In this document: piece after piece, positions 6,183-6,200 of the stretch
Layout of the letters: every line of letters starts with the position of its first letter
How positions within the stretch are numbered: position 1 is the stretch's first letter
From: Escherichia phage ECO111 5-P
Sequence record: OR844765
Strand: one strand, 5' to 3'
DNA: 64,000 bases
The notes under the pieces: generated by a model
The model's database searches: none
What the model saw: the letters and a program-made list of their open reading frames with translations, nothing else
What the model was told of the DNA's origin: nothing
Position numbers and translations under genes: made by a program

Positions 6183-6200
6183 GGGAGACTTCGGTCTCCC
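6183..6200 (+). terminator. hairpin GGGAGACTTCGGTCTCCC + TTTTG after gene 32
   Basis: 7-bp GC stem, UUCG tetraloop, T-run; 7 nt after gene 32 stop. Confidence 0.7.

Follow-up and report, generated by a model that had tools for sequence, protein, structure and literature searches.

Four identical C(UUCG)G hairpins, predicted terminators at conserved transcription-unit ends of a Mosigvirus genome

The first hairpins with a UUCG loop to be reported, in 1988, came from T4 mRNA (history in PMC4371310). In T4-like genomes, the accessible part of a comparative study reports predicted terminators after gene 23 in six of six genomes and after gene 32 in five of six, RB69 included (Nolan et al. 2006, PMC1524935); that part of the paper gives the positions of the predicted terminators of RB69 and other T4-like phages, but not the identity of a hairpin across four sites. 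The closest described arrangement is the PeSL, a stem-loop upstream of an AT-rich tract, a sigma-70-like early promoter, a Shine-Dalgarno sequence and a start codon, for which the early-promoter consensus of the T4/PST group is TTTACW-N17-TAYWAT (PMC4122927). Such cassettes are concentrated in hyperplastic regions, close to indels (PMC4122927; PMC2839356). In sequenced PeSL mini-circles the crossover zone extends from the -10 box to the ATG (Arbiol et al. 2010, PMC2839356), and the same authors, who used reporter assays for promoter and terminator activity and inverse PCR for mini-circles formed by recombination between cassettes, speculated that the stem-loop could be a protein target in recombination. 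UUCG terminator hairpins, conserved positions after genes 23 and 32, and PeSL modules are all already described in T4-type phages.

Here, we analyzed a stretch of 64,000 nt from Escherichia phage ECO111 5-P (OR844765; the window) in which one hairpin sequence is used four times. The window derives from a T-even phage of the genus Mosigvirus and is reversed in orientation relative to standard T4. It is 92-98% identical to RB69 and about 170 other Mosigvirus records, mostly 95-98% (about 97% to RB69 overall), and in aligned segments its DNA identity to T4 is 64-89%; the complete, assembled genomes of T4 and RB69 were used for comparison. The 18-mer GGGAGACTTCGGTCTCCC has four exact matches in the window, at 6183-6200 (+; site 1), 21441-21458 (+; site 2), 44146-44163 (-; site 3), and 63498-63515 (-; site 4), which bears out the original prediction of an exact 18-mer at four loci, two per strand. 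No further match with up to two mismatches is present in the 64,000-nt window, and 100 dinucleotide-preserving shuffles of the window contained no copy. A k-mer search of a relative, as had been suggested with that prediction, returned the same picture: RB69 carries copies at 146032-146049, 132140-132157, 109234, and 89887-89904, matching sites 1 to 4, and no others in its whole genome. As RB69 has exactly the same four copies, the fourfold reuse is a fixed feature of the genus and not a peculiarity of this isolate. These copies stand unchanged in the long-sequenced RB69 genome, and little changes with their description. The four hairpins appear to be of a known kind, namely predicted C(UUCG)G terminator hairpins of T-even phages at conserved transcription-unit ends, and two of them seem to lie within PeSL-type terminator-promoter junctions.

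Read on the sense strand, the 18-mer folds into a G+C-rich stem of 7 bp with a C(UUCG)G cap; all four copies share the stem-loop GAC-UUCG-GUC, i.e., a UUCG loop with a C-G closing pair. Flanking A-U pairs lengthen the stem to 8-9 bp at sites 2, 3, and 4, giving stems of 7-9 bp with five G-C pairs. The predicted folding energy is -12 kcal/mol for the 18-mer without flanks and -13.6, -19.2, -18.9, and -14.1 kcal/mol with flanks at sites 1 to 4, respectively (z -3.3 to -5.0; -3.3 at site 1 and -4.95 at site 2). All four hairpins lie 4-29 nt past the stops of genes 32, 30.9, 23, and 8 and are co-oriented with the upstream gene. The two reverse-complement copies are located 3' of genes 23 and 8, as had been proposed, with UUCG on the sense strand of each. 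Sites 1 and 3 passed as terminator-like in a terminator scan, site 3 being the best-ranked such site in its scan; sites 2 and 4, with their short U tracts, are absent from the list. No Rfam family matched anywhere in the window when gathering thresholds were applied.

The hairpin of site 1 (6183..6200, +) is an exact match to the 18-mer, begins 7 nt past the gene 32 stop and is followed by the tail UUUUGAGUAU. A T4-type early promoter, GTTTACT-N17-TATTAT (6232..6260, +), follows 31 nt past the hairpin and precedes frd.2 (6290-6682, +; FRD2 Pfam match, 5e-34), which it is predicted to drive. At site 2 an 8-bp hairpin including the A-U extension (21440..21459, +) lies 5 nt past the gene 30.9 stop, with the tail UUUGUGCGUU, also read as UUUGUGCG, and the short U tract UUUGUG. 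Here the T4-type early promoter GTTTACT-N17-TACTAT (21495..21523, +) begins 36 nt past the 18-mer and is predicted to drive the gene that it precedes, 30.8 (21565-21936, +; Phage_30_8 Pfam match, 1e-72). The claim that both plus-strand copies are followed by TTTTG and then by a GTTTAC early promoter is hence correct, with measured gaps of 31 and 36 nt.

No early promoter accompanies sites 3 and 4. Site 3 (44144..44165, -) is a 9-bp hairpin, AUGGGAGAC-UUCG-GUCUCCCAU, located 28 nt past the stop of gene 23 (ORF 44193-45761, -; named from the RB69 and T4 annotation) and followed by UUUUGGUUUU. It stands between gene 23 and a convergent 89-aa ORF (43866-44135, +) whose end is 9 nt from the hairpin. 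This ORF has a full-length match to phrog_6003, of unknown function, and is preceded by an early-promoter-like site, GTTTACA-N18-TACTAT, at 43806 (+). At the counterpart of 43806-44135, RB69 annotates only two tiny ORFs (188c and 189c), and T4 has segD. Site 4 is an 8-bp hairpin (63497..63516, -) 4 nt past the stop of gene 8 (63520-63522, -), a gene that runs off the window and is likewise named from the RB69 and T4 annotation. Its tail UUCGUGUAUA, also read as UUCGUGUA, is weak, and its U tract, UUCGUG, is poor. The T4-type late promoter TATAAATA (63483..63490, -), read from the sequence, lies 7 nt past the site 4 18-mer; gene 9 (62594-63457, -) is directly 3' of it, and this is the predicted promoter of gene 9.

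The 18-mer itself is widespread. Exact copies are present in unrelated viral DNA from IMG/VR, in at least 120 stretches with a G+C content of 30-63%, and among the matches listed 80 of the 103 different flank contexts are not closely matched by any other. Among these listed matches a T-rich tail follows on the UUCG-sense strand in 87 of the 103 contexts, compared to 20 on the opposite strand. We rejected the idea that the 18-mer is peculiar to T4-like phages, given its presence in unrelated phages with unrelated flanks. Whether any stem of such composition would be equally common depends on the control: a permuted purine-rich arm again yielded at least 120 IMG/VR matches, whereas the arm-swapped GTCTCCC-TTCG-GGGAGAC yielded five. 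Its recurrence in at least 120 unrelated viral stretches, usually with a T-rich tail, marks the 18-mer as a generic C(UUCG)G hairpin of the predicted intrinsic-terminator type. UUCG hairpins with a purine-rich 5' arm and following Us are favored by phages at large, and the repeated origin of this one suggests a function at the RNA level and argues against a sequence-defined mobile element.

From the observed sequence, position, orientation, conservation, and predicted folding of the four hairpins we infer that they are probably terminators or attenuators and 3'-protective structures at gene ends, their common stem being reused through preference and occasional copying. Each would terminate or attenuate transcription by E. 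coli RNA polymerase independently of any factor, and would also shield the upstream mRNA as a structure at its 3' end. Four units would be closed in this way, namely those of gene 32 and of 31-rIII-30.9 and two late transcripts, one with its end at gene 23 and the other with its end at gene 8, and in annotation the hairpins can be used to mark the ends of these four transcription units. Transcription would resume at sites 1 and 2 from a sigma-70 early promoter 31-36 nt on, giving a terminator-promoter insulator laid out like a PeSL; at site 4 it would resume from a late promoter, and at site 3 the hairpin would keep convergent genes apart. Sites 2 and 4 may attenuate or stabilize rather than terminate. 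Literature searches for RNA 3'-end maps of T4 or RB69 returned nothing usable. The likely cause of the reuse would be a strong preference for such a stem together with occasional copying of the whole hairpin between sites.

The other UUCG hairpins of the window help to place these four. A scan of the window for perfect hairpins with a 4-nt loop found 11 with a UUCG loop, of which ten have a C-G closing pair. In all ten C(UUCG)G hairpins of the window (stem of at least 5 bp) UUCG is on the sense strand of the gene ending just upstream. An ORF stop is no more than 28 nt away in eight of the ten, the exceptions being uvsW, with the stop codon inside the hairpin, and gene 8, off the window. The remaining hairpins named in the original prediction do exist (22383, 26331, 40797, and 57101), and there are two more at 13912 and 37404. 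Four UUCG hairpins, at 13912-13925, 22383-22404, 37404-37421 (-), and 57101-57116 (-), have no U tract; in each the next start codon is 9-12 nt on and the Shine-Dalgarno sequence is in the tail, and they appear to be intercistronic elements and not terminators. As these four lack a U tract and adjoin the next ribosome-binding site, the UUCG hairpins of the window separate into a terminator-like and an intercistronic class, and the GGGAGAC copies seem to belong to the former.

This second class bears on an alternative reading, in which the four hairpins are mainly RNA stability or processing elements (barriers to 3' exonucleases, intercistronic folding nuclei) and transcription reads through them. 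The four window hairpins that lack a U tract, with a start codon within 9-12 nt, are in line with such a role, as are the weak U tracts at sites 2 and 4 and the proposal in the original T4 study that such hairpins are nucleation sites for RNA folding (PMC4371310). We nevertheless regard it as unlikely: sites 1 and 3 have canonical U-rich tails, the T-rich tail accompanies the 18-mer in most of the listed contexts from unrelated phages, and a new promoter follows sites 1, 2, and 4, which fits upstream transcription that is stopped or reduced. Far less probable still is a signal at the DNA level, such as a cruciform or a protein-binding palindrome used by an endonuclease or in replication or packaging. 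At the level of DNA the stem is perfectly palindromic, and palindromes can be targets of recombination or cleavage (a speculation in PMC2839356). Orientation of the loop would, however, be irrelevant to a signal in duplex DNA, yet the loop is asymmetric, with UUCG always on the sense strand in the ten window hairpins; moreover, the T-rich tail in the listed matches from unrelated phages is strand-specific, and the stem sequence differs between T4 and RB69 at corresponding sites.

Likeness of the hairpin-promoter arrangement to the PeSL cassettes (PMC2839356; Comeau et al. 2014, PMC4122927) had been part of the original prediction, and it holds for sites 1 and 2, which have every sequence element. 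At both, the A-rich tract GAAAAAG precedes the early promoter, and the Shine-Dalgarno sequence and start codon are GAGGAAATCAAAATG (frd.2) and GGAGAATAAAATG (30.8). Sites 3 and 4, in contrast, reuse the hairpin without an early promoter and are not PeSLs. Among about 11 early-promoter matches on the plus strand, only those of sites 1 and 2 have a strong hairpin upstream. When the two hairpin-promoter cassettes are aligned, they have in common the hairpin, the T-rich tail, and the consensus boxes of promoter and ribosome-binding site, and since identity is limited to these elements we rejected a recent duplication of the cassette.

Gene content varies next to one of the four sites. The region adjoining site 1 is hyperplastic: across 30 T4-like genomes, many shuffled gene families occur between gene 32 and frd, and after site 1 T4 has frd.3 and RB69 has ORF245c, neither of which is in the window. 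The junction between window and RB69 is a 26-nt repeat, ATCAACAA(C)ATGAGGAAATCAAAATGG, 67-92 nt downstream of the site 1 hairpin; in the window this ribosome-binding-region repeat (TCAACAACATGAGGAAATCAAAATGG, 6267..6292, +) is where the window-RB69 BLAST segments overlap, and in RB69 it flanks ORF245c on both sides. The suggestion that the hairpins bound differences in gene content stands for site 1, which adjoins the ORF245c indel, and is not supported at sites 2, 3, and 4. The hairpin is also not the breakpoint: the junction falls in the repeat between the -10 box and the ATG, the same zone as in the PeSL mini-circles. Site 2 lacks a change in gene content, as 30.9 and 30.8 flank the hairpin alike in T4, RB69, and the window. 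Among the gene-sized differences between window and RB69 that were compared, with the smaller differences at 22705-22895, 36883-36897, and 39790-40520 (hoc) set aside, only the ORF245c indel adjoins one of the four hairpins. Three gene insertions of the window that are absent from RB69 are homing-endonuclease genes away from the four hairpins: a GIY-YIG Seg-like homing endonuclease between genes 33 and 59 (3826-4509), an I-TevI-like homing endonuclease inside td (8253-8996), and a phrog_655 endonuclease before nrdA (9774-10421). The left edge of the last insertion abuts another hairpin, AACGGGATAGTATTTATCCCGTT (9740-9762). The td insertion with the I-TevI-like ORF (8126-9144) should be a group I intron; relatives annotate it as such, and no Rfam family reached the gathering score. 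In T4, frd.3 (146575-146802) follows the gene 32 terminator-promoter, and RB69 has a homologue at 72055-72282 in the e.6-e.8 region, about 74 kb away, which appears to be a relocated small gene cassette.

Another reading would make the hairpin the working core of a PeSL that is mobile or recombinogenic, with recombination there moving gene cassettes and spreading the hairpin. The full PeSL layout at sites 1 and 2 (PMC4122927), the hyperplastic region downstream of site 1, the RB69 frd.3 homologue at another locus, and the published speculation on a recombination protein target (PMC2839356) are consistent with this view. We consider it improbable, however, since the sole nearby indel junction lies in the ribosome-binding-region repeat, which fits the -10-to-ATG zone of the mini-circles (PMC2839356) and not the stem. 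In addition, sites 3 and 4 lack both an early promoter and a change in gene content, site 2 lacks the latter, the window-specific insertions are homing-endonuclease genes elsewhere, and few of the plus-strand early promoters have a hairpin upstream. A narrow functional vocabulary, and not mobility, can yield an exact 18-mer repeat, which calls for caution in interpreting such repeats.

T4 shares the positions after genes 32, 30.9, and 23 but not the stem. The 18-mer GGGAGACUUCGGUCUCCC has no copy in the whole T4 genome. After gene 23, T4 has AGGGAACCUUCGGGUUCCCU (T4 106536-106555), with the same loop, C-G closing pair, position, and sense-strand orientation as in the window, and after 30.9 it has AGGACUCCUUCGGGAGUCCU (T4 130340-130359), for which loop, closing pair, position, and orientation likewise match; the T4 stem sequences differ from those of the window at corresponding gene ends. 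The T4 gene 32 terminator, GGGGACCCUAGAGGUCCCC followed by U6, occupies the same position and precedes an early promoter for frd-region genes, but has a pentaloop and another stem, compared to the UUCG hairpin and shorter U tract of the window. T4 similarly reuses identical hairpins, two or three times each (AAGGGGCUUCGGCCCCUU, AGGACUCCUUCGGGAGUCCU, and AAAGGCCUUCGGGCCUUU), although T4 families with a stem of at least 7 bp reach a maximum of two copies, as opposed to four identical 7-bp stems in the window.

We further collected the loci around gp32, gp31, gp23, and gp9 from IMG/VR genomes, among which close Mosigvirus relatives are few. A strong hairpin follows gene 32 in 29 of 30 T4-like loci, usually with a GTTTAC-type early promoter after it; its stems include GGGAGAC-UUCG, AGGAGCC-UUCG, GGGGACC-CUAGA (the T4 type), GGGGACC-UUCG, and others. 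After 30.9 a hairpin is present in all 24 loci, nearly always followed by an early promoter. Most stems there are of the GGGACUC(C) type, and among the 24 loci GGGAGAC is restricted to Mosigvirus relatives and the distant IMG genome 2974666281. All 49 loci after gene 23 have a hairpin; the 18-mer is present in 12 of these, and in nine it is part of the exact 22-mer of the window. Between genes 8 and 9, 40 of 43 loci have a hairpin with TATAAATA after it, and here both stem and loop differ widely from locus to locus. The core seen most often at the four sites is GGAGAC-UUCG, and GGAGAC makes up 21 of 93 stems there in other T4-like phages. The four positions are old, and the stems turn over within a limited purine-rich vocabulary; Mosigvirus has, at all four positions, the stem that is commonest in the family.

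Is one stem at four sites then more than this vocabulary would give? The statement that four exact 18-mers are unlikely by chance is right for random sequence, but does not hold against the stem pool of T4-like phages at the same four sites: if stems are drawn from this empirical pool, which is not phylogenetically independent and may itself carry copying, four of nine alike have P ~0.24. Position-independent stem models give P of 0.013 down to 5e-5. Sharing of stems within lineages is also seen elsewhere, with GGGACC at sites 1, 3, and 4, GGAGCC at sites 1 and 3, GACUCC at sites 2 and 4, and GGAGAC at sites 1, 2, and 3 of IMG genome 2974666281. In a permutation that shuffled stems among genomes within each site, 17 identical within-genome core pairs were observed compared to 5.6 expected, and 0 of 20,000 permutations reached 17; with the window left out there were 11 versus 4.2 pairs (P = 0.002). 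Keeping one genome per lineage gave P of 0.0002-0.004 with the window and a marginal P of 0.007-0.10 without it. The reuse of a single stem is real and would largely reflect a family-wide preference, with possible copying within genomes in addition.

Pure convergence holds that each site reached GGGAGAC-UUCG-GUCUCCC alone, with nothing copied from another site, because a UUCG loop on a C-G closing pair with a purine-rich 5' arm makes a near-optimal short terminator. It is favored by the many unrelated viral stretches with the exact 18-mer and their mostly partnerless flanks among the matches listed, by a permuted purine arm that is just as abundant (at least 120 matches for either) when the arm-swapped control has five, and by the status of GGAGAC as the commonest core with its unremarkable probability under the empirical pool. 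Against it, T4, with the same host and RNA polymerase, has no copy of the 18-mer and uses other stems, the stem shared across sites differs among several lineages (GGGACC, GGAGCC, or GACUCC), and within-genome sharing exceeds the permutation expectation. Flanking pairs, moreover, track the genome and not the site, with A...U at Mosigvirus sites 1, 2, and 4 and AU...AU in 2974666281. On balance, convergence as the whole explanation seems doubtful to us.

Site 2 is the best single case for copying. The GGGACUC(C) stem of T4 and most lineages, probably ancestral there, is replaced in Mosigvirus and, independently, in 2974666281, in each case by the stem used elsewhere in the same genome, including lineage-specific flanking pairs. 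Identity in the four-site alignment ends at the hairpin edges, apart from the T-rich tail, with no conversion tract longer than about 24 nt, and three of the RB69 sites have no more than 24 nt in common; as identity ends at these edges, no larger cassette was copied. A dispersed mobile repeat of the REP or MITE kind was rejected, as conserved flanks or terminal repeats beyond the bare hairpin are absent. Homogenization of hairpins within genomes is plausible but unproven, and the case for copying is weak. We tentatively propose, as a possibility somewhat less likely than not, that unlinked terminator hairpins of T4-like genomes evolve in concert by short-patch copying, with one 'house' stem per lineage: GGGAGAC in Mosigvirus and 2974666281, and GGGACC, GGAGCC, or GACUCC in others. 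Such copying would proceed by gene conversion or template switching between hairpins during recombination-driven replication. If concerted evolution is true, the dispersed identities of 18-24 nt would add microhomology for module shuffling. That stems may be homogenized within genomes is a modest lead, for which hundreds of Mosigvirus and Tequatrovirus genomes exist for testing.

Some further hairpins were observed in these genomes. RB69 has a second reused sequence, the 22-mer AAAGGAGACTTCGGTCTCCTTT, at 20962-20983 (-) and 154318-154339 (+), after genes 41 and 35; counting this pair, six RB69 hairpins have a GGAGAC-UUCG core genome-wide. IMG contig 2974739009 (121-kb) contains two gene 8/9 regions, 13.5 kb apart and 99% identical to the gp9 of the window, which is probably an assembly duplication. 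In IMG genome 2706796299 the hairpin after 30.9, about 870 nt past gp31, has an inverted loop, GGGACTCC-CGAA-GGAGTCCC, and two sister genomes have a TTCG loop on the same stem; the inverted loop looks like a template-switch flip of the palindrome.
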